DNA of 22,308 bases. It comes from an uncultured Pseudomonadales bacterium. GTDB taxonomy: Bacteria > Pseudomonadota > Gammaproteobacteria > Pseudomonadales > Oleiphilaceae. The notes beneath the pieces were generated by a model. It was not told the DNA's origin. It did not search any database and saw only the letters and a list, made by a program, of their open reading frames with translations. Position numbers and translations under genes: made by a program. Shown piece by piece: positions 2,872 to 15,428 of this stretch; position 1 is the first letter of the stretch; the number at the start of each line of letters is the position of its first letter. The stretch is from the NCBI GenBank assembly GCA_964514485.1, contig CAZEWG010000037.1, positions 1 to 22,308 of the forward strand, in the 5' to 3' direction.

Positions 2872-2890
2872 GCAGAAACTGGTTTCTGCC
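2871..2890. terminator. Perfect GC-rich hairpin between convergent nrtR and the 369-aa gene (bidirectional terminator candidate)
   Basis: GGCAGAAAC-TG-GTTTCTGCC is a 9-bp inverted repeat at 2871-2890. It overlaps the nrtR TAG stop (2869-2871) and the stop of the minus-strand gene (2890-2892). No U tract follows on either side. Confidence 0.4.
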
Positions 2891-3999
2891 TAAGCAAGTG
2901 CGAATACAGCGCCCACAGCAAGGCCTATCGCGAAGTACCAGAGATAATGTATGGAGGACGCAGGTTTCGCAGTCTCATGAGCTGTTGGTGTCATCTGATC
3001 TGGCTTTGCAGTGGCATGGGCCATTGGGGGAGTCTGATCAGGTTCTGCAGTGTCAGAGGTCACTTGTATGGCTTGATCTGACTGTACAGGGATAGAGGGT
3101 GTCTGTGCTGGTCGATCCGGCTCCGGGGTGTCGCTAGCTATCTCGGCGGAGGGGGCCTGCTCCGTGGGGGCTTCGGTTGTCAGCATATCCAGCTCTGAGC
3201 GGATGCTGTTTAGACGGGGCTCGATGCTGTCGCTAGAGGACTTTACGTCCTCTAGAAGAGATTGAATCTCCCGTGACATGAATTCAATCTCCTCTGAAAG
3301 AGGCTCCACGTCGTTCTGGAGGGGAACGATATGGGTTTGGTGCCAGGTGTCCGCCAAGTGGGCAAGCTGTGGATTGAGGGATGAGCGGGTGACCAGTTCA
3401 ACAGTATGGCTTGCACAATGTCGGGCTAGAACTGGAGAATCATATTCGTCGCCTACAACCAACCAATAGCGCTCTGGCGGCAATAGCTCATCTTGCTCGT
3501 CCAGGGCTTGTACGCGCCAGATCTGGCCCTTAATATTATCAGCGCCTGATGGCCCTCTGAGTACCTCAATGAGCTCTGGATCCCTTACTGCCACGTTCCA
3601 GATCACCAGTATCCGCTCTCCATTGGCATTGTGGGCAACGGCATTGAACGCCAATGCTGAGATAATCTCGCTGGATATGACCGCGGGTGTTCCGGCCCAA
3701 CCTATTAGGATATCTTGGCGTGCGCACTCAAGAGCAAGGGCGTATAGCGGGAGCTCGTCCATGCCGACGGGGTGCTGGGCGTCTTTCCATTCCGTCAGAA
3801 ACTCTCGCATTTCCTCAGGGTCAGAGGACATATAGCCAATGCCGGCGTTAATCTTGTGAACGAACTCCCCCAGGAAGCTGGGGCGCTCACCTGGTTGAGT
3901 TATGGTGGCGACATACATGGGCATATCCCGCCACTTTTCCAGAAAACCGACAAAGCTTGCCTTAATATCGTCTTGAAATTTTAAAAAACCGGCGGACAT
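2890..3999 (-). CDS. Hypothetical C-terminally tail-anchored membrane protein: globular N-terminal domain, short coiled coil, Pro/Thr/Gln-rich repeat linker and a single C-terminal TM helix
   Basis: The 369-aa ORF has an ATG at 3999-3997 with an AAGGAA Shine-Dalgarno 6 nt upstream. Its C-terminus SSIHYLWYFAIGLAVGAVFALA is a clear TM segment. The preceding linker is TSDTAEPDQTPPMAHATAKPDQMTPTAHETAKP. I could not assign the roughly 240-aa N-terminal domain to a family. It is the last gene of the flotillin operon direction. Confidence 0.7.
   Translation of the reverse strand: MSAGFLKFQDDIKASFVGFLEKWRDMPMYVATITQPGERPSFLGEFVHKINAGIGYMSSDPEEMREFLTEWKDAQHPVGMDELPLYALALECARQDILIGWAGTPAVISSEIISALAFNAVAHNANGERILVIWNVAVRDPELIEVLRGPSGADNIKGQIWRVQALDEQDELLPPERYWLVVGDEYDSPVLARHCASHTVELVTRSSLNPQLAHLADTWHQTHIVPLQNDVEPLSEEIEFMSREIQSLLEDVKSSSDSIEPRLNSIRSELDMLTTEAPTEQAPSAEIASDTPEPDRPAQTPSIPVQSDQAIQVTSDTAEPDQTPPMAHATAKPDQMTPTAHETAKPASSIHYLWYFAIGLAVGAVFALA
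2994..3100 (-). repeat. Imperfect 39-40 nt tandem repeat (3 copies) encoding the PDQ(T/M)xP(M/T)AH(A/E)TAK linker repeats
   Basis: TCTGATCTGGCTTTGCAGTG at 2994, TCTGATCAGGTTCTGCAGTG at 3033 and TTGATCTGACTGTACAGGGA at 3073 show a 39-40 nt periodicity inside the coding region. Confidence 0.4.
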
Positions 4000-4147: not shown

Positions 4148-7100
4148 TTAGGAGGCGGGGTTGCCGTCTCCGCTGAAGGCGCCGCGCCGGCCATTGAGGT
4201 CAGTTCCCAAAGCACGCAGTTGCTCCATCAGCTCTCCCAGGCGCCGATAGGTGCGCACGTCAATGACCAGCTTGCCGTTCATGGCGCGGGCCAGTGGCTC
4301 GAAGCCGCTTTCCATGGTCGTGGTCAGCTTTTTAAGCATCTTGTCGAGGCCTGGAGCTGGCTGGTTAATGACTTCCACCCGGGGCTCCCGCTCCAGCAGT
4401 TGGGTGAGGCGATCCAGTAATGGCTCCATCAGTTCTTGCGGCAGCAGTGGGGGAGCCTCCTGGGACTCGGACTGGGCCCGTTCTGCCTGGGCGGCCAGGC
4501 TATTGAGCCCGGCCCGCAGGGCTTGAATCCCTTCCACGACGCCAATCAACTGGCGTACCACCCGGGCGCCTACATCCTCGTCGTCGCCCCCGGCGGACAT
4601 GCGGCGGCGGAACTCTGTCTTGATCTCTGTCCAGCGCTGTTCCTGTTCCGGTGTCATGTTGCCGCGCAGTTCGGCTAGTTTCAGCAGATTCTCCTCGGCT
4701 CCCGTGGTCAACAACTGGGCTTCGCCACGGTAGTGGTCGGCGATCAGTTGCATCAGCTCGGCCTCGGTCATCACTGAGGAGACCTTCTCCGCCATCTTGT
4801 TCATGTTGCGGTAGGAACCCTGCAGCTTGAACGGCGGCTCGGTGCGGTAGCTGTCGGCCTGGGCGCTGGAAGCGATATACTGCAGGTTGACCCTGAGGAT
4901 CACCTGCTGAATCACAAACAGCTTTTGCAGCACACTGACAATTTCCTGGCTTTCCGCCGCACTGTAGCTGTGGCTGAATTCCGTCGCGGCGACCGGCTTG
5001 CCTTGGGCCATATCCACAAAACGGTAGACGTCTTGCAGGTCACGGCTTGCCAGGGGGGCCAGCACCGGGTTGGAGGTGAGGGCGTTCTCGATGTAGCTCA
5101 GGGCAAAGGCTTCTTCGCTGCCCCCCAGTACGTCGCCGAGGTTGTACACATCGGCGCGGTTGGCGAGCATATCGGGAATGCGGAAGGTCTCGCCGGTTTC
5201 GGTGTAGGGGTTGCCGGCCATGACCACGCAGAATTTCTTGCCCCGCAGGTCATAGGTCTTGGCCTTGCCTTTCCACACACCTTCGATACGACGGGTGGCG
5301 TCACACAGGGAGATGAATTTCTGCAGAAACTCCGGATCCGTGTGCTGGATGTCATCCAGGTACAGCATCACGTTGTTGCCCATTTCCAGGGCCAGGTTGA
5401 GTTTCATCAGCTCCTGGCGTGCCGTGGAGTTACCGGCCTGGTCCGGGTCCAGGGAGCGGACTTCGTGGCCCAGGGAGGGGCAGTTGATACGCATGAACAC
5501 CAGCCCCAGGCGGTTGGCCACGTACTCCATCAGGGTGGTCTTACCGTAGCCGGGCGGTGAGATCAGCATCAGCAATCCCATGAGGTCGGAGCGCTTGTTA
5601 TCGCCCACCGTGCCCATTTGCTTGGCCAGGTTGTCGCCGATAATGGGCAGGTAGACTTCATTGATCAGCTTGTTGCGCACAAAGGTGGCAAGCGGTCGGG
5701 CCTTGAAGTCTTCCAGCCGCAGGCGTTCCCGTTCCCGCTGGAGAAACTGCAGGCGTGCGGCCTGGTAGCGCTCGAAGGCGGGAATGGTCACCGTCTGGTG
5801 GTGGGACAGGCGCTGGACAAATTCATCCAGCCGCAGCGTCAGGGTCTGGCCTTGTAGGTTGGGATGCTGCCCCAGCAGTCCGGTAATGGTCTGTTCCAGA
5901 TCCACTTCGCGAATATCCCTGGGGACCGGAATCTCCGCGGCCACCAGTGTCACGGCTTCATCCAGATAGTGCAGCCGTTCCGTCAGGCCTTCCCGTTTGA
6001 TCCAGGCGGCCAGCCAGGCAGTGGCCGTGGGCCAGGCACTATCTGCTTCACCTTCGGCGAATTTCAGGCTGTCGAGAAAGCCTTTCCACAGGCCAGCCTC
6101 CTGCAGGGAGTGGCGGAACTGTTCTGCCAGTTCGGCGGCGACATGGGTGGTCTCAAAGGCCAGGGCCTCTTTTGCCAGCTCCTCCACCAGATATTCGGCG
6201 GTCAGCGGTAAAGTCTCCGGGGCAAAGGGCAGATGGCGCTGTTCCACAAAGCTCTGCAGCCGGCTTTCCAGTTGGTTGACCAGGGCTTTGAAGGCTTCAT
6301 CGCTCCCCAGCCGCTCACGTAGCTGCACGGCGGAACGGGCCCGGTTGCGCCAGGCTTGGTTGTCCTTGTCGTGCTGTACCTGGGCCCAGTAATACACTGC
6401 CTGGGCCCGGACGGTGACCGGATAGCGCAAGGTGCCTGCTGCCCGGGCCTGGGGAATCAGCTGCTGCAGAATGAGGGCCGCGTCGTGGTCATGGATACCC
6501 CGTTCGTAGCCTTCCCGATAGCGGGGCCCGGCGTAGTCCCGTACCCGGGATACCAGGGCATCCAGGTTCTGGAGCTCTGCCAGGATCTCACTGCGCTTGG
6601 ATGCGAGTTCGCCTGCCTGTAACGCCTGCCAGAACTGATAGGCCAGGTATTCGGCCCGGTATACGCTGGTGGACTCTGAGGCCAGGGTCATGGTCCAGTA
6701 GGGCTTCAGCTCATTGAGCACCGGGTCGTCGACCACCTCGTAATAGTCGGTGCCGGTGAGGTGTTGGGCCAGGTGTTCACCCCGGGGTAGCAGCGTCAGG
6801 TCGACTTCCTGGGTGTTGACGCTGAACCGGTGGCGGGGCCCCAGCTTGATGACCTGGCCGCCTTCTTCGAAGATCTCCGCCTTATCCCGCAGGGCCCGCA
6901 CGCCCTGTTCGCGCATGGCCTTGAAGCGGGCGCTGAGGTCATCGGCCTTGACGGAGGCATCCAGCCCTTGCAGTTCTTCGATCAGCTGGCGCAGTTTGAG
7001 GATCAGCGGGTCGGAGGCGAAGAAGCTGTTAACTTCATCGGCCGTTTGGAACTTGTCCAGGCGCCGTTGCACGCTGGTGAGGATGCGGTTGGCGGCATCT

Positions 7101-9493
7101 TCCAGGTTCTGGGCCCGCTGCTGGCGGGCGTCCAGTAACTTCTGCTTGTGGGCCTCGAAGGCTTCGACGATTTCCTCGCGCTTGCCCAGGATATCCGCCA
7201 GGAACTGGTCGTAGTCGCTGAACTGGCTTTCCACTTCCTGCAATTGGGTGAGCAGGCGTGACAGTAGCTCATCGCAGCGATCCGGCGTATCCGCCATGGC
7301 CAGGGAGCTGGACACGCTTTGCTCCAGCAGGCGGAACTGGGCGGCGAACTGGGCTACGGCCTCGGCCGAGCCAATCTCCCGGCGCTTGTTGTCGGCGCGG
7401 GCCCGGCGCTGGTTAATCTGGGCATAGAGTTCGGAGACCGCGTCGATAATGCGGGTGCGGGTGGTAGCATCACCTTCCTGCAGGCCGGCAAGCAACTCCG
7501 ATACCAGCCCTAACCCTTGGGACTGCTGCTCGTACAGCTCGATGACTGCGGTAATCTGTTCCAGGGTCTGAGCCTCGGCCAGTTGCCCATCCAGCTCGGC
7601 CAAGGTCTTGTCATAGCTGGCCAGTGCCTGGGGCTTTGACAGGAATGCCAGGGTTTCTTTGGACAGGCGGGATTCCGTGGCGATGACCTGTTGTTCCAGT
7701 TGGTCGACGCGGGCCACATCCATATAACGATAGTCGCGGATGGTCAGCAGATGCCCCCGGTGACGGCGCAGTTCGGCCAAGGCGTCAATAAACAGGTCGG
7801 GACGGTCCCAGCTCTCCGGGCTGATCCGGCGCAGCAGGGCGGCCTGTGTCTGTTCCGCCTCGGCCAGGGCCTGGCGGGACTGCTGCTGGATGGCCTGGAC
7901 CTTTTCATATTCGTCGAGGATCAGCTCGCCGGTCTCGGCAATCTGTTTCAAGGCCTCGTCCAGACCGCCCAATTGTTCGGCCCCTAGCCAATGATAGGCG
8001 TCGAACAGCCGGGTAATGGCACGGATCAGGTCGTTGTAATGGCCGGGGCGGATATCCTCCTTGGCCATCATCCGTTCGATGCTGTAGAGCTCGGAAATTC
8101 CCCGCACCAGCTCGGCATTGCCGATTCTGCCGAGAAAGGTCTGTGAGCCACCGGCTTGGGCTGCGTGTTCCTCACTGAAGAAGGGAGTGCGCCAGATTTG
8201 CATGGCATGCACCCGGCTGGCTTCATCGGAAGCCTGCAACAGCACCAGGCGGCCATCGGGGAACAGGGCATAGCTGTGGCCCTGGATAGGGTTGGCCACA
8301 GCCTTATTGATAAGGTTGTAGGTGTGCAGGATCGCGCGGCCGTCTTCCGGGTGGTAGAACACGTACAGCACGTCCTCCCCGTTCGGGGAGACGATCCGTC
8401 GCTTAAAGCGGAAGCCGGCTGCATCCAGGTCAAACCGCTTGAGCTCACCAGTTTGCAGGTAGTAGCCGCTGGGATAAATGATGCCGTGATCTTCCGGCAA
8501 CTGCACGCAGGAGGCGCCAAGCTCGTCGATCCGTACCACTTCCCGGATCAGGCTGTTGTAGACGTAATGGCGTACCTGATCTTCCCGGTAAGGCTTGATG
8601 CGAACCAGGATCAAATTGCCCAGGGCGGCGTAATGGAACTCCGCGTCGTCCAGGGACTGGGTCTTGTCCTCGACCGGGTCGGCATAGATGCCCAGGCCCG
8701 TTTGGGTGTTGTTCTCCACCTTGAAGGTGATGTCACCCTGGATGTTGTCCACAAACAACTGATCCAGGATATTGATGTGGGGGTGACGCCCCTGCACGAT
8801 CTGGTCCCGGCCCACCGGGATCCAGTCAAAATCGGTTCGGGGCGGCAGGACCACATCCCGCTCGCCTCGGTTGTCCAGATACTCCAGCACCTCACCGGTA
8901 GGGGAGAGCGACCAGCGGAACACCCGGATATCCGATTCCTTTTCGCCAATACGGAAGTTGGCCAACAGCTTGCCGTCCCGTACTGCCAACTGCTGCAGCC
9001 AGGGGGCTTTGTAGAAGGTATAAAGCTCGGTGAAATCGGACTGGAACCGGCTGTTATCCAGAAAGCTGCCTTGCACCGGCTGGTGGATAAACTCCAACCC
9101 TTCCGGGCCTTCGTGCAGCTGGTACAGGGAGAAGACATCCTCCACCGCCGTGGTCTTCTGCAGGCCCTTGAAGACGTTGTAGCCCAGCAGGATGTACTGG
9201 CCGACCCGTACCGTATCCCTGGGGATGCAGTTGTGTTCGGTACGCGCCCGTGCCCTGCCGGTCACTTCCAGGCTGGTGCTGCCGAACTCCGCCAGGCGTT
9301 GCTGGTTCAGGTGCTCGATGCGCTGCTTGAGATCGCGGCCCTGCTCCAGCAGGCGGCGGCGAATCACTTCATAGGCGCCGCCCTGGGCGACGGCCTGGGA
9401 TACAAGGTCCTGTTGAATGTCCGAGGTCATGCCGAGTCCAGAAGAAAGGTTGTGAAATCGGTGGCGTTCCCTGAGAGGCGATGGTGATGCCAA
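4148..9493 (-). CDS. Giant (1781 aa) multidomain protein with an N-terminal beta-rich region, a central coiled coil, a single MoxR/AAA_5-like AAA+ ATPase module and a helical C-terminal region; no characterised family recognised
   Basis: A single uninterrupted ORF ends at a TAA stop at 4148-4150. The start is ambiguous. A TTG at 9493 has an AAGGG Shine-Dalgarno 8 nt upstream, and an ATG at 9430 (M22) has a poor Shine-Dalgarno. Walker A ISPPGYGKTT lies at about residue 1311 (nt about 5539-5565). Walker B is VMLYLDDIQH, sensor-1 is in VVMAGNPYTE, and an Arg-bearing IPDMLANRADVY motif resembles the MoxR LDRF region. Residues about 500-900 (nt about 6793-7993) are strongly helical with a heptad-like Q/E/L/A/R pattern. 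Confidence 0.8.
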   Translation of the reverse strand: MASPSPLRERHRFHNLSSGLGMTSDIQQDLVSQAVAQGGAYEVIRRRLLEQGRDLKQRIEHLNQQRLAEFGSTSLEVTGRARARTEHNCIPRDTVRVGQYILLGYNVFKGLQKTTAVEDVFSLYQLHEGPEGLEFIHQPVQGSFLDNSRFQSDFTELYTFYKAPWLQQLAVRDGKLLANFRIGEKESDIRVFRWSLSPTGEVLEYLDNRGERDVVLPPRTDFDWIPVGRDQIVQGRHPHINILDQLFVDNIQGDITFKVENNTQTGLGIYADPVEDKTQSLDDAEFHYAALGNLILVRIKPYREDQVRHYVYNSLIREVVRIDELGASCVQLPEDHGIIYPSGYYLQTGELKRFDLDAAGFRFKRRIVSPNGEDVLYVFYHPEDGRAILHTYNLINKAVANPIQGHSYALFPDGRLVLLQASDEASRVHAMQIWRTPFFSEEHAAQAGGSQTFLGRIGNAELVRGISELYSIERMMAKEDIRPGHYNDLIRAITRLFDAYHWLGAEQLGGLDEALKQIAETGELILDEYEKVQAIQQQSRQALAEAEQTQAALLRRISPESWDRPDLFIDALAELRRHRGHLLTIRDYRYMDVARVDQLEQQVIATESRLSKETLAFLSKPQALASYDKTLAELDGQLAEAQTLEQITAVIELYEQQSQGLGLVSELLAGLQEGDATTRTRIIDAVSELYAQINQRRARADNKRREIGSAEAVAQFAAQFRLLEQSVSSSLAMADTPDRCDELLSRLLTQLQEVESQFSDYDQFLADILGKREEIVEAFEAHKQKLLDARQQRAQNLEDAANRILTSVQRRLDKFQTADEVNSFFASDPLILKLRQLIEELQGLDASVKADDLSARFKAMREQGVRALRDKAEIFEEGGQVIKLGPRHRFSVNTQEVDLTLLPRGEHLAQHLTGTDYYEVVDDPVLNELKPYWTMTLASESTSVYRAEYLAYQFWQALQAGELASKRSEILAELQNLDALVSRVRDYAGPRYREGYERGIHDHDAALILQQLIPQARAAGTLRYPVTVRAQAVYYWAQVQHDKDNQAWRNRARSAVQLRERLGSDEAFKALVNQLESRLQSFVEQRHLPFAPETLPLTAEYLVEELAKEALAFETTHVAAELAEQFRHSLQEAGLWKGFLDSLKFAEGEADSAWPTATAWLAAWIKREGLTERLHYLDEAVTLVAAEIPVPRDIREVDLEQTITGLLGQHPNLQGQTLTLRLDEFVQRLSHHQTVTIPAFERYQAARLQFLQRERERLRLEDFKARPLATFVRNKLINEVYLPIIGDNLAKQMGTVGDNKRSDLMGLLMLISPPGYGKTTLMEYVANRLGLVFMRINCPSLGHEVRSLDPDQAGNSTARQELMKLNLALEMGNNVMLYLDDIQHTDPEFLQKFISLCDATRRIEGVWKGKAKTYDLRGKKFCVVMAGNPYTETGETFRIPDMLANRADVYNLGDVLGGSEEAFALSYIENALTSNPVLAPLASRDLQDVYRFVDMAQGKPVAATEFSHSYSAAESQEIVSVLQKLFVIQQVILRVNLQYIASSAQADSYRTEPPFKLQGSYRNMNKMAEKVSSVMTEAELMQLIADHYRGEAQLLTTGAEENLLKLAELRGNMTPEQEQRWTEIKTEFRRRMSAGGDDEDVGARVVRQLIGVVEGIQALRAGLNSLAAQAERAQSESQEAPPLLPQELMEPLLDRLTQLLEREPRVEVINQPAPGLDKMLKKLTTTMESGFEPLARAMNGKLVIDVRTYRRLGELMEQLRALGTDLNGRRGAFSGDGNPAS

Positions 9494-9570: not shown

Positions 9571-11652
9571 TTAGCCGTCCGTGCCTGTGGTACCGGTGAG
9601 CTGGCTGCTGGCGGTTTTGACCACCGACTCCTTGCCACCGATAGCCAACAAGCGGTTCAGGGCTGCCTGGATGCTGGCATTGCGGGTTACGCCTTCCAGC
9701 CCCTTGCCCACTGATAGGCCCTTGGCGAATTGCTCGAAGTACTCGCCCTGGCCGCCGACGATTTCGATCTTGGCCTTCTGCAGCGCTGAGGACAGGACTT
9801 CGGCCTGTTCCTTGGCAATTTCCTTGTTGGCCTCGATGGACGCCATGGTTTCCTGAATGGCTGCATCCAGCTGGCGGGTCATCATCTCGAAGTCGCGAGC
9901 CTCGGGAGACATCTGGGCCATGGATTCGAACTTCTCCAACAGACCCTGAGCTTCTGCCTTGGCTTTCGCCAGCAGGGTATGGGCAGCCGCTTCGCCCTGT
10001 TCCCGTTGGCCCTTGGCCTCGGCCAGCAGCTTCTCTTCCAGTACCCGTGCTTCGACCAGACCTTCTTCCTCGATGGCTTTGGCCTTGGCCTTGATGATTT
10101 CGGCCTCTGCCATACCCTGTTCGCGCTGGCCCTTGGCCTCGGCCAGCATCCGCTCTTCCAGTACCCGTGCTTCGGCCATGCCTTCCTCCTCGAAGGCTTT
10201 GGCCTTGGCCTTGGTGACTTCGGCTTCCACCAGGCCTTCCCGCTCGAGGGCATCGGCCATGGCTTCTTTGACGCGGGCTGCTGCCAGGCCATCGGCCGCT
10301 TTCACCGCGCGGATACCTTCTGCCCGCTTGGCTTCGGCCAGGGCCCGCTTGTCGGCGGCTTGCAGTTCGGCTTCCGCCAGTACCTGGATTTCCCGGGCCT
10401 TGTGTGCGGCTTTCTGCTCTTCGGCTTCGGCCGCTTTCACAGCTTTGATCCGTTCTTCTTCTGCCTGGGCGGTGGCCTCGGTGATCTTCACCTGCTTCAG
10501 ACGCTCGGCTTCGGACAGTACATGGGTATCTTTGATCCGCTCTTCTTCTTCGGCCACTTTCTTCTCGGTGGCGATCCGCTCGCTGATAGTGACCGCAATG
10601 AGCTTGCGCTCTTCCTCCAGCGCCTTCTCTTTCTCGATGCGCTGCAGTTCCACTTCCCGCTCCCGGGTCACGGCTGCCAACTGGCGCGCTTTCTCCACGT
10701 TTTCAGCCTCGACCACCACGGCCCGCTCGCGGTTCTTGTCGGCCACTTCCACCTGACGGCGCTTGTTGGCTTCGGCAATCTCGATGGCCTCTTGTGCGGC
10801 AATGCGGGCTTCTTCTGCGCGACGACGCTCCTGCTCCCGCACGGTTTCCGCTTCGGCCTGCTCCCGGGCCCGGATCACTTCGATCTCACGCTGCTGCCGC
10901 GCCTGGGCTTCGGCCCGTTGTTTCTCGAGTTCCAGAAGCGCCTCGGTGGTGGCCGTATCCTTGCGGTCAATTTCCAGCTTCTGGTCGTTACGCAGGCGGT
11001 TGGTTTCTTCCGCCTGGGTTTTGACCAGTTCGGTCAGCTTGCGGATACCCTGGGCATCCATGGCATTGTTGGGGTCGAGCAGCTCGATGGGCGTCTGCTC
11101 CAGGTAGTCGATGGCCACGTCTTCCAGGATGTAGCCATTGAGGTCCTCGCCGATGGTCTTGACGATTTCTTCCCGGAACCGGATGCGGTTGTCGAACAGC
11201 TCCACAAACTCCAGTTGTTTGCCCACTGATTTCAGGGCTTCGGAGAACTTGGCATTGAACAGCTCGTTGACGGCTTCCTTGTTGGAGGCGCGGGCCACGC
11301 CTACGGACTTGGCCACCTTAAGCACATCTTCAGGCGTTTCATTGACGCGGATGTAGAAGGCGACCGTGATGTCGGCGCGGATATGGTCCTTACAGATCAG
11401 GCCTTCCTTGCCCCGCCGGTCAATTTCCAGGGTCAGCACGGAGATCCGCATGACTTCCTTTTTGTGGATAACCGGCCAGACCATGGCGCCGGTGAAGTAC
11501 ACCTTAGGCGTCTGGGATAGGTCGTTGACGATCAACGCCTCTCCCTGTTCCACCTTGACGTAGAACAGCTTGAACAGAAACAGCACAGCCAGAATGACGG
11601 CAAAGATGACGCCAACGGCCAGCAAAAATGGCAGCACAATAGACAAAGACAT
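9571..11652 (-). CDS. yqiK: Flotillin-family SPFH protein (YqiK-like), long form with C-terminal Ala/Glu-rich repeats
   Basis: The 693-aa product has an N-terminal TM/hairpin (LSIVLPFLLAVGVIFAVILAVLFLF) and an SPFH/band-7 core (EALIVNDLSQTPKVYFTGAMVWPVIHKKEVMRISVLTLEIDRRGKEGLICKDHIRADITVAFYIRV). A long EA-rich helical region with 40-aa tandem repeats follows. The ATG at 11652 has an AAGGAG Shine-Dalgarno 6 nt upstream, 29 nt downstream of the yqiJ stop. Confidence 0.9.
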   Translation of the reverse strand: MSLSIVLPFLLAVGVIFAVILAVLFLFKLFYVKVEQGEALIVNDLSQTPKVYFTGAMVWPVIHKKEVMRISVLTLEIDRRGKEGLICKDHIRADITVAFYIRVNETPEDVLKVAKSVGVARASNKEAVNELFNAKFSEALKSVGKQLEFVELFDNRIRFREEIVKTIGEDLNGYILEDVAIDYLEQTPIELLDPNNAMDAQGIRKLTELVKTQAEETNRLRNDQKLEIDRKDTATTEALLELEKQRAEAQARQQREIEVIRAREQAEAETVREQERRRAEEARIAAQEAIEIAEANKRRQVEVADKNRERAVVVEAENVEKARQLAAVTREREVELQRIEKEKALEEERKLIAVTISERIATEKKVAEEEERIKDTHVLSEAERLKQVKITEATAQAEEERIKAVKAAEAEEQKAAHKAREIQVLAEAELQAADKRALAEAKRAEGIRAVKAADGLAAARVKEAMADALEREGLVEAEVTKAKAKAFEEEGMAEARVLEERMLAEAKGQREQGMAEAEIIKAKAKAIEEEGLVEARVLEEKLLAEAKGQREQGEAAAHTLLAKAKAEAQGLLEKFESMAQMSPEARDFEMMTRQLDAAIQETMASIEANKEIAKEQAEVLSSALQKAKIEIVGGQGEYFEQFAKGLSVGKGLEGVTRNASIQAALNRLLAIGGKESVVKTASSQLTGTTGTDG
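9994..10233 (-). repeat. Tandem 120-nt (40-aa) direct repeat, two full copies plus a partial one, inside the flotillin C-terminal region
   Basis: ccctgttcccgttggcccttggcctcggccagcagcttctcttccagtacccgtgcttcg at 9995 recurs as ccctgttcgcgctggcccttggcctcggccagcatccgctcttccagtacccgtgcttcg at 10115. The encoded units are KAKAKAFEEEGMAEARVLEERMLAEAKGQREQGMAEAEII and KAKAKAIEEEGLVEARVLEEKLLAEAKGQREQGEAAAHTLLA. Confidence 0.6.
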
Positions 11653-11681: not shown

Positions 11682-12323
11682 TTATCCGGTGAACTCGTGC
11701 TCCGGCACGATTCGGTATGCGTTTTGGTCAGAGAGGTGTTCAACAAGGATGGCCTGGTCGCCACGCTTCAACTTGCCAGATTCGGCACGCACCTTGAGGA
11801 TCAGCTTGGCGCCGTCCAGGGTGACAGTGGCCTCCCCAAAGTGCTCATCCACCACGGAGCTGCGCACCACACAAGTGCGGCCCAGTAATGCAGGAACCGT
11901 GGCGGGACGGTGGAGTTTACGAAACAGGGGGCGCAGGGGGCGCACACTGGCGGCGGTGGCGAACAGGGCCAGAGCTGTGGCGATCAGGATCACCAGGCTG
12001 CCCGCCAGCCAATAGAACAACCCTGTGGGCAACAGGCTGAGCAGGAAATGGACTGCGAAATAGGAGGTCAACCAGGCGTAAAGGACCAGTAGCGTGATCA
12101 CCAGGGAGGCAGGGACACCGGTTAATCCTAGGGTGACCATGAAACCGCCCAGTCCGCTGAGGCTGACGGAATCGCCACTGATGTCGAAATCGAAATCCGT
12201 TTCAAATAGGTCTGGGCTGACCAGGCCGAACAGCGCGAACAACCAGTAGAGGCAGACAACACCCAGAAGTACGCTGAACAGGATAGTGGGGAACGACAGT
12301 GCGTTTGCCAAAAACTCTTCCAT
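11682..12323 (-). CDS. yqiJ: NfeD/YqiJ-family inner-membrane protein with a C-terminal OB-fold, the usual flotillin partner
   Basis: The product has multiple TM helices (FPTILFSVLLGVVCLYWLFALFGLV, LVITLLVLYAWLTSYFAVHFLLSLL, LFYWLAGSLVILIATALALFATAA). Its soluble C-terminal beta domain (GRTCVVRSSVVDEHFGEATVTLDGAKLILKVRAESGKLKRGDQAILVEH) is typical of NfeD. I prefer the ATG at 12323-12321 (MEEFLANALSF), which has a GGAAGA Shine-Dalgarno. The ORF track extends to a TTG at 12353 with no Shine-Dalgarno. Confidence 0.85.
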   Translation of the reverse strand: MEEFLANALSFPTILFSVLLGVVCLYWLFALFGLVSPDLFETDFDFDISGDSVSLSGLGGFMVTLGLTGVPASLVITLLVLYAWLTSYFAVHFLLSLLPTGLFYWLAGSLVILIATALALFATAASVRPLRPLFRKLHRPATVPALLGRTCVVRSSVVDEHFGEATVTLDGAKLILKVRAESGKLKRGDQAILVEHLSDQNAYRIVPEHEFTG

Positions 12324-12460
12324 TAGTCTTCCATTAGTCCGTCCCTCAGACAACTTATGTCAAAGTAGCCTTTACACATGAACCACGTCAACCCTCAAGT
12401 CGCAAAAAGTGATCCCATTCCGAAAAACAGCGACTTTTGAAGGAAAGGGATAAAATTTTA

Positions 12461-12490
12461 TTGACATAAATTGTCATAGTCGCCTAGTTT
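12461..12490 (+). promoter_or_regulatory. Candidate sigma70 promoter for the yjfI-yjfJ operon, overlapped by the inverted repeat TGACATAAATTGTCA
   Basis: A TTGACA -35 box lies at 12461-12466 and TAGTTT lies at 12485-12490 with an 18-bp spacer. An AT-rich upstream tract GGATAAAATTTTA precedes them. The 5-bp inverted arms TGACA/TGTCA at 12462-12476 overlap the -35 box and are a possible repressor site. Confidence 0.3.
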
Positions 12491-12608
12491 GTGAACAGGA
12501 CAGTTGATGTCGCTTTGCCAGAAAGGCCCATGCCGCAGTTCGGAAACTCACTGCCTGTCAAAGGACTGTTCAACGATTGAAGGCCACCATTGCAGAAGGG
12601 AGTTGCCA

Positions 12609-13016
12609 GTGAGCTTGCTACAAGACATGACGTTAAGCCTAGCGAATACGGTGTTCGAAGGACATCGGTTCGACTGCCTGCCCATCTCCGGCGAACAGGA
12701 AGTGCTGCAAGTGCAGGTTTCCGGACTGGAGGAAATGCCGATCTACGTGACGGTAACGGATACCCAGATTCTCTGTATCAGCTACCTGTTCAAGAAATCC
12801 GAGCTCAAGGAAGGCAGCATCAATGAACTCAATGCCTTGCTCCTTGAATTGAGCCTGCCCATGCCGCTCAGCAGTTTCGGCATGGTGGGTGATCATTATG
12901 TGATCTATGGGGCACTGGCCCTGACGGCGACTGCTGAACACGTGATGAAGGAACTGACCACCCTGGCCGGCAACGCGGTTGACGCGCTGCAAACGCTTGA
13001 GCCCTATCTGAAGTGA
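12609..13016 (+). CDS. yjfI: DUF2170 family protein (YjfI-like), the usual upstream partner of the PspA-like YjfJ
   Basis: A GTG at 12609 with an AAGGGAG Shine-Dalgarno 6 nt upstream gives a 135-aa product. The alternative ATG at 12627 gives 129 aa. The protein is acidic with a conserved-looking core (VLQVQVSGLEEMPIYVTVTDTQILCISYLF). It lies 112 nt upstream of the pspA-like gene, matching the E. coli yjfI-yjfJ arrangement. The ORF track's 12504 start adds a Cys/His-rich 35-aa extension, which I treat as leader sequence. Confidence 0.7.
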   Translation: MSLLQDMTLSLANTVFEGHRFDCLPISGEQEVLQVQVSGLEEMPIYVTVTDTQILCISYLFKKSELKEGSINELNALLLELSLPMPLSSFGMVGDHYVIYGALALTATAEHVMKELTTLAGNAVDALQTLEPYLK

Positions 13017-13128: not shown

Positions 13129-13821
13129 ATGAGTGTATTGCGCAAGATCTGGACTGCACTGCGGGGGAGCGCCCGTGAACTGGGTGATGCCGTGGTGGAC
13201 GCCAACAGCATCCGTATTTTTGAACAGGAAATTCGTGACGCCCAGGCTGCCATTGATGACTCCAAGCGGGCGCTGACAGGGGTGATGGCGGACAAGATGA
13301 AAATCGACCGTCGTCTTGCTGAGCTCAATGACCTGATTGCGGATGACGAAGCCAGTGCCGTTAAAGCGCTGGAGCAGGATAACGAGGCCCTGGCCCTGGA
13401 AGTGGCCCAGCGTATTGCCAAGCGGGAGGCTGAGCGTAAGGAGCAGTTTGAAATTGCTGAGCGCCTGGCCTCGCAAATTGCTTCGCTGCGCCAGAAGATT
13501 GATGCCGCCGAGAAGATCATTGCCGATCACCAACGGGAGCTTTCCATTGTGCGTACGACGGAAAGCGTGCAGAAGGCCACGGTCCAGATTGTCGATAACA
13601 TCGCTGCCCAGGACTCCACGCTGAGTTCGGCCCGCAGCTCCCTGGAGCGGATCAAGGCGCGTCAACAGCGGCTGGATGACCGCCTGGCCGCCGGTGAAGT
13701 GCTGGCCCGGGAGTCCGGTGAGCAGGCGCTGGATGAGAAGTTGAAGGCCGCCGGTATTAAAGGTGAAGCAGCGGATGCCAACGCAATTCTCGCCCGGTTG
13801 CGGGCCCGTGCTGAGTCCTGA
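13129..13821 (+). CDS. yjfJ: PspA/IM30 (ESCRT-III superfamily) membrane-stress protein, YjfJ-like
   Basis: The 230-aa all-helical coiled-coil protein begins MSVLRKIWTALRGSARELGDAVVDANSIRIFEQEIRDAQAAIDDSKRALTGVMADKMK, which is typical of the PspA/IM30/Vipp1 family. It has an AGAAGGA Shine-Dalgarno. Its length matches E. coli YjfJ, and it follows a DUF2170 gene. Confidence 0.9.
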   Translation: MSVLRKIWTALRGSARELGDAVVDANSIRIFEQEIRDAQAAIDDSKRALTGVMADKMKIDRRLAELNDLIADDEASAVKALEQDNEALALEVAQRIAKREAERKEQFEIAERLASQIASLRQKIDAAEKIIADHQRELSIVRTTESVQKATVQIVDNIAAQDSTLSSARSSLERIKARQQRLDDRLAAGEVLARESGEQALDEKLKAAGIKGEAADANAILARLRARAES

Positions 13822-13890: not shown

Positions 13891-14223
13891 GTGCCTGACC
13901 GTAACGATCGCTGGAAAAAGGAACGCGAGGCCATTCGGGCAACCCAGATAGCATTCGATCTTTCCATGGAGACCCAGTACAGTGTTAAACGGGCGGCGCT
14001 GGCTGAGCGGCTCAGCCCGCCCGACTATGTCCGTAAGCTGTTAGGCCTGCCCTATAACAAGCGTCCGGTGCGGCCTCGGTTGACGGTCACCTTTCGGCCG
14101 GAAGACTTGGAATTGCTGGGGCAGCGTTATGGCGTTGCCCCCAGTGATTTCATCAAGATCCGGGAGAGGGCGGCGGAAGAGTTGATCAAGGCTGCACAGC
14201 AAAAGGGTGGCGAAGGGCCATGA
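13891..14223 (+). CDS. Small hypothetical protein (110 aa), probably a tandem ribbon-helix-helix (RHH) DNA-binding protein
   Basis: The GTG start is immediately preceded by a GGAAGGAGG Shine-Dalgarno. Two RHH-like units are present. The first is RATQIAFDLSMETQYSVKRAALAERLSPPDYVRKLL and the second is RPRLTVTFRPEDLELLGQRYGVAPSDFIKIRERAAEEL. Each shows a strand followed by helix A, a turn and helix B. Confidence 0.6.
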   Translation: MPDRNDRWKKEREAIRATQIAFDLSMETQYSVKRAALAERLSPPDYVRKLLGLPYNKRPVRPRLTVTFRPEDLELLGQRYGVAPSDFIKIRERAAEELIKAAQQKGGEGP

Positions 14224-14304: not shown

Positions 14305-14331
14305 GCCTTGTGGATCCAAGGCTAATTTATT
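14305..14331 (+). terminator. Hairpin plus T-rich tract downstream of the 110-aa gene
   Basis: GCCTTG-TGGATC-CAAGGC has a 6-bp stem at 14305-14322. TAATTTATT follows at 14323-14331. This region is AT-rich and noncoding-looking, which argues against the ORF track's 14310 start for the next gene. Confidence 0.4.
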
Positions 14332-14475
14332 ACCTCCTTAAAACGGAAATATTGCTCAGATTTTTCTGGTGCCCCTTAAAAGCTCTGCTACTTTTATGGG
14401 AGTTGCGGGCATTTTGCTTGGCCGCAGTCGACACCCACTTTTATTGGCGTTGCATTCAAGCCACAGGAAAAATCT

Positions 14476-15428
14476 ATGCAGCTCTCAAGAACGCTTGCTC
14501 TGTTTTGTGTGGAGCCCTGGCTCTCGGTAATCCATTCCCGGCACAAGCCTGGGGAAGTCATTTCGAGCAAGTCAGAGCTGACGCTGTCAAAGGAGATGCC
14601 AAAGCCCAAACAGCCCTGGGCAATATGTATCACGATGGTTTTGGGGTGGAGAAGGATATCGCCAAAGCCCTGGAGTGGTATCGCAAGGCTGTCGATCAAG
14701 GCTATGGGGAGGCTCAATTCCGGCTTGGCCACGAGTACTCAACAGGCCATGGAGTGACCGCTGATCAGGAAATGGCCGTTAAGCTGTTTAAGATGGCTGC
14801 AGCCCAAGGGCATGGCGCTGCACAGTTCCGGCTGGCTGAATGTTATTTGGCGGGACTCGGGGTTCAGAAAGATTCGTTTGAGGCCCTAGTCTGGTACAAG
14901 AAGTCAGCCGATGCCGGACACCTGAATGGCCTGTTGAAGATGGCCGACTTCCATTATCGGGAAAAAGAGTGGCCGCAAGCCTTGAGATATTATGAAAAGG
15001 CAGCGGAACAGCGTAGTAGTGAGGCCCAGTATGTGCTTGGTTTGATGTATTTGCAGGGGCAGGGTGTTGACGCGGATGATAAGAAAGGGGCTCGCTATAT
15101 AATGCTTGCCGCTACTGATGATAAGCATATCGCAGCCAAAGCTGTCTATGGGCATTTGTTATCAAAGGGCAGGGGCGTCTCCAAGAATCCCGATCTGGCC
15201 TATGAGTATTTGTCTGATGCGGCCGAGAAAGACGATGTGGAAGCTATGTTTTTGTTGGCGGAAGGATTGTACTCCGGGGAAATCAATCTGCCTGGCTCGG
15301 ATCTGGTTGCAGCATATAGTGGCGAGTCAGTTGACGATGTGCTGAAGCAGGAAGCCAAGGATTGGTATGAAAAAGCTGCTGCCGCCGGAGACTCCAGGGC
15401 ACGATACAGGCTAAGGGAACGTTACTGA
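14476..15428 (+). CDS. Secreted Sel1-like repeat (SLR/TPR-like) protein; start codon and frame at the 5' end unresolved
   Basis: At least seven Sel1 repeats are present (AQTALGNMYHDGFGVEKDIAKALEWYRKAVDQGYGEAQFRLGHEY, AAQGHGAAQFRLAECYLAGLGVQKDSFEALVWYKKSA, AEQRSSEAQYVLGLMYLQGQGVDADDKKGARY and others). A signal-peptide-like segment KNACSVLCGALALGNPFPAQA-WG lies in the repeat frame from 14478, but that frame has no ATG, GTG or TTG. An ATG at 14476 has an AGGA Shine-Dalgarno 7 nt upstream but sits in the +1 frame. GC content is lower than in the surrounding DNA. Confidence 0.65.

Follow-up and report, generated by a model that had tools for sequence, protein, structure and literature searches.

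The gene pairing examined here is already known, both from the bacABCDEF cluster of Pseudomonas aeruginosa and as the “CesT-PspA + band-7 + YqiJ/YuaF + AAA+” system. In P. aeruginosa, bacABCDEF (PA3732-PA3727) is a biofilm-associated cluster organized as one operon (Mace 2008, PMC2587700; Wallart 2024, PMC10948618). Its genes are co-transcribed, and BacB-F go up together 6- to 13-fold in a bacA mutant (PMC2587700, PMC10948618). BacA has been proposed to act as a negative regulator (PMC10948618), and a putative RpoN (sigma-54) site has been proposed upstream of bacA (PMC2587700, PMC10948618). Gene-neighborhood classes of CesT/Tir-PspA were described by Ravi et al. (2024, mSystems, PMC11237479), in passages of which an RHH transcription factor gene closes “some cases” of a related spermidine-synthase/polyamine-type operon and a flotillin domain is assigned to the bacD protein class by profile methods. 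In Escherichia coli, the DUF2170-PspA dyad (YjfI-YjfJ) heads the operon yjfIJKLMC and is followed by DUF2491, DUF350, DUF1190 and peptide-spermidine ligase genes, while in both E. coli yqiJK and Bacillus subtilis yuaF-floT the gene for an NfeD-type OB membrane protein lies directly upstream of an SPFH/flotillin-like gene. The locus bears on the regulation of the non-canonical PSP systems (YjfIJ, Bac) and on the frequent linkage of PspA to flotillin/NfeD and polyamine modules. Our literature searches did not find the control logic of the combined PspA and flotillin system, and a search with the operator motif returned only an unrelated plant paper. The locus described below is a real and coherent regulatory variant of the known system.

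The window, by which we mean the whole 22,308-nt stretch of DNA analyzed (contig CAZEWG010000037.1, from an uncultured Pseudomonadales bacterium of the Oleiphilaceae), encodes a PSP/flotillin membrane system of the bac type, with its genes divided between two divergent operons (Table 1). It shares its core genes with bacABCDEF, namely those for DUF2170, PspA-family, ∼23 kDa membrane, ∼76 kDa SPFH and giant AAA+ proteins. The original prediction of divergent operons about 285 bp apart proves exact: the intergenic region spans 285 bp (12324-12608) between the minus-strand ATG at 12323, the start of the 213-aa gene, and the plus-strand GTG at 12609, the start of the DUF2170 gene. The end given earlier for the control region, 12626, falls 18 nt within the DUF2170 gene. 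The spacer is AT-rich as described, with a GC content of 0.405 over 12300-12499 compared with 0.52-0.60 in the flanks.

Table 1. Features of the divergent locus in window coordinates; promoters, operators and the X110 assignment are predictions
Feature	Position	Strand	Evidence or remark
bacE-like giant ATPase: DUF3686 beta-propeller region + DUF7902 + AAA+	4148..9430	-	Pfam
bacD-like membrane SPFH/band-7 protein, 693 aa, YqiK/FloT type, flotillin-like	9571..11652	-	
bacC-like membrane protein, 213 aa, C-terminal NfeD-type OB barrel, YqiJ/YuaF type	11682..12323	-	
Exact 11-bp tandem duplication, TCTTCCATTAG x2, spanning the bacC start codon	12316..12337		Repeat search
O_C, putative operator proximal to the bacC promoter, TGACATAAGTTGTCT on the minus strand, abutting the -10 box	12348..12362	-	PWM 9.7 bits
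P_C, predicted sigma-70 promoter: -35 TTGACG (12391-12386), 18-nt spacer, -10 TACTTT (12367-12362)	12362..12391	-	Family grammar
AT-rich stretch separating the two back-to-back -35 boxes	12392..12460		GC 0.405; 60% identity to L007; without conserved motif
P_A, predicted sigma-70 promoter: -35 TTGACA (12461-12466), 18-nt spacer, -10 TAGTTT (12485-12490)	12461..12490	+	Family conservation
O_A1, putative distal operator TGACATAAATTGTCA, overlapping the P_A -35; the inverted repeat originally noted	12462-12476	+	PWM 14.1 bits
O_A2, putative proximal operator GGACAGTTGATGTCG, weak, located at the predicted start of transcription	12498..12512	+	Spacing
Long 5' UTR preceding the DUF2170 gene; RBS GGGAG at 12596-12600	12513..12608	+	
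bacA/yjfI-like DUF2170 gene, CesT/Tir-type chaperone fold	12609..13016	+	Pfam PF09938
bacB/yjfJ-like PspA/IM30 gene	13129..13821	+	Pfam PF04012
X110, conserved 110-aa protein, putative single-chain tandem RHH repressor	13891..14223	+	

The minus-strand operon begins with the bacC-like gene, is continued by the SPFH gene 29 nt downstream and has the bacE-like gene as its last conserved member. The bacE-like protein, assigned 1760 aa by the gene callers, matches DUF3686 (9.5e-189), DUF7902 (3.7e-22) and AAA/AAA_5 in Pfam. A 369-aa gene (2890-3999) was considered as a bacF equivalent and rejected, as it occurs only in the window's own lineage and has no family match. In the bacD-like protein, a hydrophobic N terminus precedes the SPFH domain and a long, repetitive, Ala/Glu-rich coiled-coil tail forms the C terminus. 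Its first 240 residues match Pfam Band_7 (PF01145) at 8.6e-11 (42.6 bits, cut-off 23.6, residues 33-183); the full-length protein as query has no Pfam or NCBIfam match, and a search of residues 241-693 (E ≤ 10) gave nothing relevant and no Pfam Flot match.

The bacC-like protein has no match in Pfam (NfeD and YqiJ included, E ≤ 10) or NCBIfam, one ortholog shows a faint YqiJ_N match (E 0.26) and one homolog is annotated DUF1449. Its AF2 model (pLDDT 80) comprises transmembrane helices and a five-stranded barrel, and the top two PDB matches in Foldseek are soluble domains of NfeD proteins, 3cp0 (E 7e-4, TM 0.75) and YuaF 2k14 (E 0.014, TM 0.64). The NfeD label given originally is thus upheld by the modeled fold and finds no counterpart in Pfam. 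The window's protein differs from yqiJK and yuaF-floT in missing these Pfam models, and its gene pair is extended by a further gene, for a giant AAA+ protein, and linked with a PspA operon. Neither single-sequence nor profile queries of X110, the NfeD-like and the SPFH protein gave a relevant match among PDB sequences.

On the plus strand, the DUF2170 protein matches PF09938 at 4.3e-34 (117.7 bits, cut-off 27), with 163 homologs detected. Against the NCBIfam BacA equivalog model NF050185 (cut-off 300) it reaches 40.6 bits, and only over the C-terminal part, so that by profile score it is not a BacA equivalog. The PspA/IM30 protein matches PF04012 at 3.9e-34 (118.6 bits, cut-off 33.9), with residues 2-228 aligned to positions 1-218 of the 220 in the profile. 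The third gene, encoding X110, had been read as a small RHH-like gene that replaces yjfKLMC. The E. coli layout was given correctly, but the replacement does not hold, since the X110 gene belongs to operons of this type as a conserved component and is present in every motif-bearing locus that extends far enough downstream. E. coli lacks X110, an adjoining flotillin module and the operator motif upstream of yjfI.

The comparison with Pseudomonas is closer. In L088, a Pseudomonas sp. locus, a BacA equivalog (340 bits, our positive control for NF050185) is followed by homologs of the B, C, D and E proteins of the window (tblastn identities of 42%, 46%, 69% over the SPFH domain and 55% over 1776 aa, respectively). 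There the genes form a single co-directional operon, whereas in the window C-D-E lie on the strand opposite A-B across the divergent spacer. Pseudomonas has rhomboid and PLD genes after the ATPase and a proposed sigma-54 promoter, in contrast to the sigma-70-type promoters and dedicated operators predicted for the window. Both X110 and the palindromic motif TGACATAWTATGTCA are present in the window and absent from the Pseudomonas operon.

The inverted repeat TGACA-TAAAT-TGTCA at 12462-12476 is preceded by a T that completes a TTGACA box at 12461-12466, an overlap already seen in the original prediction. Taken from the window alone the palindrome is not significant, with two matches at one mismatch or fewer compared with 0.61 expected and 16 of 100 shuffles reaching two. 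Both matches lie inside the spacer, at 12348-12362 and 12462-12476, and form a 15-nt inverted pair (O_C and O_A1) in which 14/15 positions agree. A PWM trained on other genomes (training median 26.5 bits) scores O_A1 and O_C highest in the 22-kb window, at 14.1 and 9.7 bits, and no site outside the spacer reaches 8 bits.

We surveyed 80 species-level genome loci (1.37 Mb) at a motif threshold of PWM ≥ 12 bits. The DUF2170-PspA-110aa and NfeD-like/SPFH/AAA+ genes adjoin in 24 of the 80, divergently in 15 and as one co-directional operon in nine, and the bacE-like gene adjoins the SPFH gene in these 24; with the 56 loci that have no bacC, this makes three architectures in all. The palindrome is confined to promoters of the PspA/flotillin system, and zero copies occur elsewhere in the 1.37 Mb at this threshold. 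The T-A-W-T-A positions, which the search pattern had as N, are nearly invariant. A pair of sites lies ahead of the DUF2170 gene in 73/80 loci. The divergent loci add a second pair ahead of the NfeD-like gene, giving a 2+2 arrangement in 12/15 and fewer sites only in L007, L008 and Hahella. In the nine co-directional loci, bacC always lacks the motif and the DUF2170 gene has two copies of it. Two sites at the DUF2170 gene are likewise found in 52 of the 56 loci without bacC, and in 36 of these 56 a further single site marks the promoter of an upstream operon linked to the locus. The palindrome, a putative operator, is conserved across marine Gammaproteobacteria. The passages of Ravi et al. cited above (PMC11237479) contain no operator, promoter or regulon, whereas here the RHH-like gene and the operator occur in nearly all 80 loci, those of the flotillin type included.

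Coordinated regulation of the two modules, as first proposed, gains support from their adjacency in relatives, from the single operon of Pseudomonas and from the occurrence of the same motif before both halves of the divergent loci. The idea of one shared operator needs amending: each promoter has its own predicted copies (O_C on one side, O_A1 and O_A2 on the other), and what would be shared is the regulator.

The position of the sites relative to the promoters is regular. The -35 box is an exact TTGACA in 60/61 unique DUF2170-side promoters and in 13/13 bacC-side promoters, TAnnnT follows 16-19 nt downstream in 46/61, and the proximal site begins mostly 7-9 nt past the -10. The distal site of the family coincides with the exact TTGACA box, and the proximal site covers the predicted transcription start on the DUF2170 side and abuts the -10 on the bacC side. 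This geometry suggests a repressor architecture on sigma-70 promoters. Some RHH proteins, such as AmrZ, both activate and repress, and the direction of regulation is unreadable from sequence alone; X110 might accordingly activate, or have a dual role at, promoters of the P_A/P_C type. We regard this as very unlikely. Sites that overlap a perfect -35 hexamer together with the -10 or the start of transcription are placed as is classic for repression by steric hindrance, and an activator is not required where the -35 is a consensus one.

In the window, a generic sigma-70 scan found no promoter because the -10 boxes match at only 3/6 positions, and it took conservation across the family to reveal the promoters. 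P_C was placed with the C-side grammar of the family, TTGACATAWTATGTCG-N6-c-TAGATT/TAGTTT, in which the -10 directly adjoins the proximal operator; the relative L007 reads TTGACG ... TAGCTT at this position. Predicted transcription starts are ∼12497 on the plus strand and ∼12355 on the minus strand. In both position and geometry, O_C corresponds to the proximal C-side operator of 13 divergent loci. Classical Psp control, by a sigma-54 promoter and an enhancer-binding activator as in E. coli, would have a precedent in the putative RpoN site upstream of P. aeruginosa bacA (PMC2587700, PMC10948618). No -24/-12 match in the spacer exceeds chance. The -24/-12 pattern (TGGCAC-N5-TTGC) occurs 205 times in the window with three or fewer mismatches compared with 233 expected, and no match with a GG/GC core is suitably placed in the spacer. 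Neither pspF nor pspB nor pspC is found among the window's ORFs or Pfam matches, and conserved sigma-70 -35/-10 elements are present instead. We therefore rejected a sigma-54 promoter and consider control of this kind extremely improbable here.

The window's operators are the weakest of the family, yet they are conserved against L007. O_A2 begins 36 bp past the start of O_A1, within the family mode of 34-36 bp, and scores only -2.1 bits, yet its block is conserved (GGACAGTTTATGTCG in L007). The block containing O_C (12338-12364) is 93% identical to L007 and the P_A blocks are 91% identical, compared with 34-60% identity over the remaining spacer, at a synonymous divergence of 0.6-1.5. The distal operator that overlaps the bacC -35 in relatives has degenerated in the window. 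This loss, together with site scores of 14.1, 9.7 and -2.1 bits where the family median is 26.5, could mean that the operators of this lineage are decaying, with operons that are effectively constitutive or otherwise controlled and a repeat that survives as a relic, mainly as a -35 box. That L007 and L008 alone, Hahella apart, fall below 2+2 among the divergent loci fits such decay. The high conservation of the sites at this divergence argues against it, and O_C and O_A1 deviate alike from the consensus (GACAAYTTATGTC), a pattern suggestive of selection and not of drift. X110 is moreover under strong purifying selection (dN/dS 0.064). We think decay unlikely; the remaining sites are weak but conserved, so that repression is probably looser than in relatives.

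Several other elements of the spacer were considered. The 11-bp duplication at the bacC start creates a minus-strand mini-ORF (ATG-GAA-GAC-TAA) with a stop codon that runs into the genuine start (TAATG); the duplication is found in L008 and not in L007. L007 matches the DUF2170 leader at 34% identity and has two deletions in it. The leader has no Rfam match and folds no better than shuffles (z = +0.67), and an RNA element was rejected on these grounds. The 10-nt inverted repeat I2 (12544-12553 / 12607-12616) is not conserved. The palindrome itself was rejected as an RNA hairpin because its distal copy overlaps the -35 and is untranscribed, and because its bases do not covary but are invariant. 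A DNA loop joining O_C to O_A1 was also rejected, as the side-to-side distance varies from ∼117 to 275 bp among relatives and so shows no constraint that would support it. A PADLOC scan gave nothing meaningful, and an anti-phage defense system was rejected.

The probable operator-binding protein is X110, as judged from its distribution. Across the loci compared, including E. coli and Pseudomonas, which lack both, X110 and the motif are present together and absent together without exception. The family is small and dedicated, with 178 representatives. Its AF2 model, built from eight sequences, has a pLDDT of 75.6 and no strands, and resembles with moderate confidence the single-chain tandem RHH proteins TraY, single-chain Arc and AvtR. 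X110 is most likely a single-chain tandem ribbon-helix-helix protein, to go by this model. A Foldseek search with the model gave nothing significant, and no RHH family model matches the window's X110 sequence. Among 42 orthologs only sub-threshold matches appear, to RHH_1 (0.006), FitA-like_RHH (0.0085, residues 24-52) and NikA-like (0.006-0.02), and alignment of one half with the other in hhalign revealed no significant internal repeat (probability 25% local, 0.6% global). X110 has no detectable sequence similarity to F-plasmid TraY, viral AvtR or engineered single-chain Arc, its own fold being modeled only, and it differs from the relaxosome and viral proteins TraY and AvtR in being a chromosomal, operon-specific putative regulator.

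The DNA-binding fold of X110 is accordingly not firmly established by AF2, Foldseek or hhalign, and some proteins combine an X110-like with a DUF4178-like domain in one fusion, a possible sign of a role in protein interaction. The palindrome may then be a real operator whose regulator is encoded elsewhere, with X110 serving, for example, as a structural partner of PspA/DUF2170 or as an antitoxin-like protein. We hold this to be quite improbable.

Considered together, these data make it likely, in our assessment, that two back-to-back sigma-70 promoters sit on TGACATAWTATGTCA operators and that X110 represses both operons. In this model, two copies of X110 would bind each palindrome, one per GACAT half-site, and would occlude RNA polymerase. 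The outcome would be negative autoregulation of DUF2170-PspA-X110 with co-repression of the flotillin operon, and repression would be released presumably by membrane stress, relayed via a protein partner. In the lineage of the window, the distal bacC operator has decayed to a bare -35 box. Gene identities, synteny, the distribution of the motif, the geometry of promoters and operators and the joint occurrence of X110 and motif are observed, while the transcription starts, binding and repression by X110 and the inducing signal are inferences of the model. Counting against it are the soft fold assignment of X110, the low scores of the window's operators and the different situation in Pseudomonas, where the same genes go without X110 and the motif and BacA is the proposed negative regulator (PMC10948618). 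More tentatively, X110 may found an unmodeled family of single-chain tandem-RHH repressors and serve, in marine Gammaproteobacteria, as the dedicated master switch for a membrane-stress regulon of the PSP type that depends on neither PspF nor sigma-54. One 15-bp palindrome would then control DUF2170-PspA, NfeD/flotillin/AAA+ and, in Shewanella-type genomes, DUF350/7TM-spermidine-synthase-like operons, with relief by sequestration via DUF4178 or the CesT-like DUF2170 chaperone. This wider scheme is a possibility to which we give limited weight.

For the window itself, the locus is well explained and holds no surprise. Biofilm formation, rhamnolipid production and virulence are all affected by the bac system in P. 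aeruginosa. With a sharply defined operator that has zero background, and with a candidate 110-aa repressor, the regulation of the non-canonical PSP systems becomes accessible to simple experiments, and culturable carriers include Shewanella, Hahella and Ketobacter. The operator would place the flotillin/NfeD/AAA+ and PspA modules in one regulon even where they are not one operon, and a common regulon would speak, as an independent line of evidence, for joint action of bacterial flotillin with PspA/ESCRT-III-type membrane repair.

The two divergent promoters between the NfeD-like gene and the DUF2170 gene are each predicted to carry their own operators, and comparison with related loci supports coordinated control of the two operons, for which the original prediction had suggested one shared operator. 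The intervening 285-bp spacer has a GC content of ∼0.41, against 0.52–0.60 in its flanks. To its left lie three closely packed minus-strand genes, and the plus-strand operon to its right ends in X110, a 110-amino-acid protein. The spacer itself is as first described, except for a right-hand limit set at 12626, just inside the DUF2170 gene, on whose GTG start homolog alignments and independent gene calls agree. The TTGACA box and the inverted repeat overlapping it lie exactly as claimed.

Features of the window, with promoters predicted from the family grammar
Feature	Position	Strand	Remarks
NUDIX/NrtR-type regulator gene	2164–2871	plus	adjoins 369-aa gene
369-aa gene	2890–3999	minus	follows ATPase gene
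∼1760-aa ATPase	4148–9430	minus	DUF3686, DUF7902, AAA+ domains
693-aa protein (SPFH)	9571–11652	minus	
213-aa membrane protein (NfeD-like)	11682–12323	minus	
11-bp tandem duplication	12316–12337		exact, TCTTCCATTAG twice
Spacer	12324–12608		
O_C, operator at NfeD-like promoter, TGACATAAGTTGTCT	12362–12348	minus	one-base overlap with P_C −10
P_C, NfeD-like promoter	12391–12386, 12367–12362	minus	TTGACG, 18 nt, TACTTT
P_A, DUF2170 promoter	12461–12466, 12485–12490	plus	TTGACA, 18 nt, TAGTTT
O_A1, distal operator at P_A, TGACATAAATTGTCA	12462–12476		
O_A2, proximal operator at P_A, GGACAGTTGATGTCG	12498–12512	plus	7 nt past P_A −10; then leader of ∼110 nt
DUF2170 gene	12609–13016	plus	GTG start; Pfam 4e-34
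PspA_IM30 gene	13129–13821	plus	Pfam 4e-34
X110 gene	13891–14223	plus	no family match
Sel1-repeat gene	14310–15428	plus	follows X110

No Pfam or NCBIfam model matched the full-length 693-aa protein at E ≤ 0.01, probably because its repetitive Ala/Glu-rich tail suppresses the Band_7 match: residues 1–240 match Pfam Band_7/SPFH at 8.6e-11 (42.6 bits, over a gathering score of 23.6). The Pfam flotillin C-terminal domain was not found in this protein. The 213-aa protein has no sequence-family match in Pfam or NCBIfam; its AlphaFold model (26 sequences, pLDDT 80) places a barrel of five strands after transmembrane helices, and its two best PDB matches, 3cp0 (E 7e-4, TM 0.75) and YuaF of B. subtilis (2k14; E 0.014, TM 0.64), are NfeD soluble domains. 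This makes "SPFH/NfeD operon" a reasonable label, with SPFH identified from sequence and NfeD from fold only.

The pairing of PspA with SPFH/NfeD/AAA+ genes is already published. P. aeruginosa PA3732–PA3727 form the co-transcribed bacABCDEF operon, whose products are the DUF2170 protein BacA, the PspA-like BacB, a membrane protein of 23 kDa, one protein of 76 kDa and two others, and in a bacA mutant BacB–F rise together 6- to 13-fold (PMC2587700, PMC10948618). Direct confirmation comes from L088, a Pseudomonas sp. contig on which the gene for a BacA equivalog (340 bits against an NCBIfam cut-off of 300) precedes those for homologs of the window PspA (42% identity), NfeD-like protein (46%) and SPFH domain (69%) and for an ATPase matching that of the window at 55% over 1776 aa. 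At 40.6 bits, the window DUF2170 protein falls short of that cut-off and does not qualify as a BacA equivalog, and, unlike the window, L088 lacks both X110 and the canonical operator motif. Just 5′ of its bacA, at 3165–3205, is a short direct repeat, ATTACATGTG ... ATTACATGTG, which may be a different operator for this X110-less, Pseudomonas-type operon. Gene calling splits its SPFH (BacD) gene, at 5292–6295, into short ORFs of 251 and 79 aa in place of ∼690 aa, which suggests a frameshift, truncation or assembly error.

Scanning genomes with a profile of DUF2170 gave 80 species-level loci, whose layouts were read by tblastn with the window proteins. Flotillin/PspA adjacency, whose absence from close relatives was to count against the original prediction, is kept in 24 of these. 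Fifteen, including Hahella and Ketobacter/Ketobacteraceae, are divergent as in the window (NfeD–SPFH–ATPase/DUF2170–PspA–X110), and nine (Kangiellaceae, Reinekea) carry the same genes co-directionally, from DUF2170 through X110 to the ATPase. The other 56 (Shewanella, Alteromonadaceae, Cellvibrionales) have no NfeD–SPFH–ATPase genes and read DUF2170–PspA–(DUF4178-like)–X110, most with a lipoprotein/DUF350/7TM-spermidine-synthase-like operon upstream. The window's lineage, an uncultured gammaproteobacterium, is present in several metagenomes.

In the 400 nt preceding the DUF2170 gene, a search for TGACA-N5-TGTCA with at most one mismatch recovered sites in 79 of the 80 loci, nearly always paired, ∼34–36 bp apart. 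The five positions left unconstrained are nearly invariant, T-A-W-T-A, which makes the complete motif TGACATAWTATGTCA and its 13-bp core GACATAWTATGTC. We built a position weight matrix (PWM) from 117 unique sites, leaving out the window's lineage, and applied it at 12 bits. Divergent loci have two sites at the DUF2170 gene in 12 of 15 and two at the NfeD-like gene in 12; co-directional loci have two at the DUF2170 gene in 9/9 and none at any NfeD-like gene; and 52 of the 56 loci without the flotillin-side genes have two at the DUF2170 gene. The second pair thus occurs exactly where the flotillin-side genes form a separate transcription unit, the signature expected from one factor acting on both halves. 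Exactly one extra site, ∼3.8–4.0 kb upstream of the DUF2170 gene, occurs in 36 of the 56. In Shewanella xiamenensis (L074), the one locus in which its neighbors were identified, this site (6027–6041) has the full consensus and lies at the start of the linked operon, with glnE on one side and, on the other, a 329-aa gene, then DUF350 and a 7TM-spermidine-synthase-like gene; the predicted regulon therefore reaches a polyamine-type module. No further match at ≥12 bits was found in the 1.37 Mb searched.

On the DUF2170 side, the base before the distal site is T, completing an exact TTGACA, in 60 of 61 unique promoters; in 46, a TAnnnT hexamer lies 16–19 nt further on, and the proximal site mostly begins 7–9 nt past it, at the expected transcription start. 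All 13 NfeD-side promoters read TTGACATAWTATGTCG-N6-c-TAGATT/TAGTTT, the −10 immediately abutting the proximal operator and the start codon lying 16–23 nt on in most. Placement of perfect −35 boxes within operators, and of operators over the start site, points to strong sigma-70 promoters under a repressor. The window spacer has no sigma-54 −24/−12 element matching above chance.

Within the window, promoter/operator geometry is canonical and the sites are weak, at 14.1 bits for O_A1, 9.7 for O_C and −2.1 for O_A2, where the family has a minimum of 13.4 and a median of 26.5. Decay has left only a bare −35 box of the distal NfeD-side operator. O_C and O_A1 share a deviation from consensus, GACAAYTTATGTC, and are alike at 14 of 15 positions. 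Counted in the window alone, the motif is not in significant excess (2 occurrences against 0.61 expected), and the case for these candidate operators is made from position and comparative data. Against the related locus L007 (dS 0.6–1.5), the O_C, O_A1 and −10/O_A2 blocks are 91–93% identical and the remaining spacer 34–60%; despite their weakness, the sites are under constraint.

Hahella sp. NBU794 (L009, 9808–10000) is another lineage with partly degenerate operators: its NfeD-side pair is still good, and its DUF2170-side sites have two mismatches each (CGACATAATATGTCC, CGCCATATCATGTCA). The 11-bp duplication spans the NfeD-like start codon and is present in L008 and absent in L007. It yields a minus-strand, three-codon mini-ORF (ATG GAA GAC TAA) with a stop codon that overlaps the true start (TAATG), an arrangement that resembles translational coupling. 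Among the 80 loci, homologs of the 369-aa and Sel1-repeat genes occur in the window's own lineage only, and both genes probably lie outside the conserved system. The NUDIX/NrtR-type gene, with precomputed Pfam NUDIX and WHD_NrtR matches on matching metagenome contigs, appears unrelated to the operator motif above.

Wherever a motif-bearing locus reaches far enough past PspA, X110 is encoded there; the four motif-bearing loci without it (L039, L041, L058, L063) end within ∼350 nt past PspA or before it. Like L088, E. coli K-12 yjfI lacks both the motif and X110, and L043 has a best PWM score of −0.1 and no X110 at E ≤ 1. X110, which had been taken for an RHH-like replacement of yjfKLMC, is instead a conserved component of this operon type and likely the regulator of the operators, probably as a repressor. 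Purifying selection on it is strong (dN/dS 0.064), and it belongs to a small family (178 representatives among 1.84 billion proteins) with no Pfam model. Several orthologs give sub-threshold Pfam RHH matches; the AF2 monomer model (only 8 sequences, pLDDT 75.6) has no strands, Foldseek found nothing with it, and hhalign gave no significant sign of internal duplication. The evidence for an RHH fold is suggestive but not firm. Ravi et al. (PMC11237479) mention an RHH transcription factor as the final gene of the related polyamine-type operon in some cases.

An exhaustive search also returned three proteins of 403–479 aa (P0255, P0262, P0280) whose C-terminal ∼75 residues match X110 residues ∼26–104. 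Their N termini share a conserved motif, MLDxIxDFWKP...GFGFVPQ..., and no Pfam domain was found in them. By eye, a relationship is possible between this motif and the DUF4178-like protein whose gene separates PspA from X110 in operons of the Shewanella type.

In the best-supported model, DUF2170–PspA–X110 would be negatively autoregulated and the NfeD/SPFH/AAA+ operon co-repressed through separate operators, with looser repression in the window's lineage than in its relatives. Each palindrome would be occupied by two pseudo-dimeric X110 monomers, one at either GACAT half-site and their centers ∼8 bp apart. The gene association is known; for the operator/repressor logic and for the divergent arrangement in two operons, no description was found in the searchable literature. 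Two leads may point to an anti-repressor or inducing signal: the rise of the other Bac proteins upon BacA loss in P. aeruginosa, and the putative DUF4178-like fusions to X110-like domains in distant relatives, in which, if the N termini are DUF4178-like, gene fusion joins DUF4178 to the putative regulator domain.
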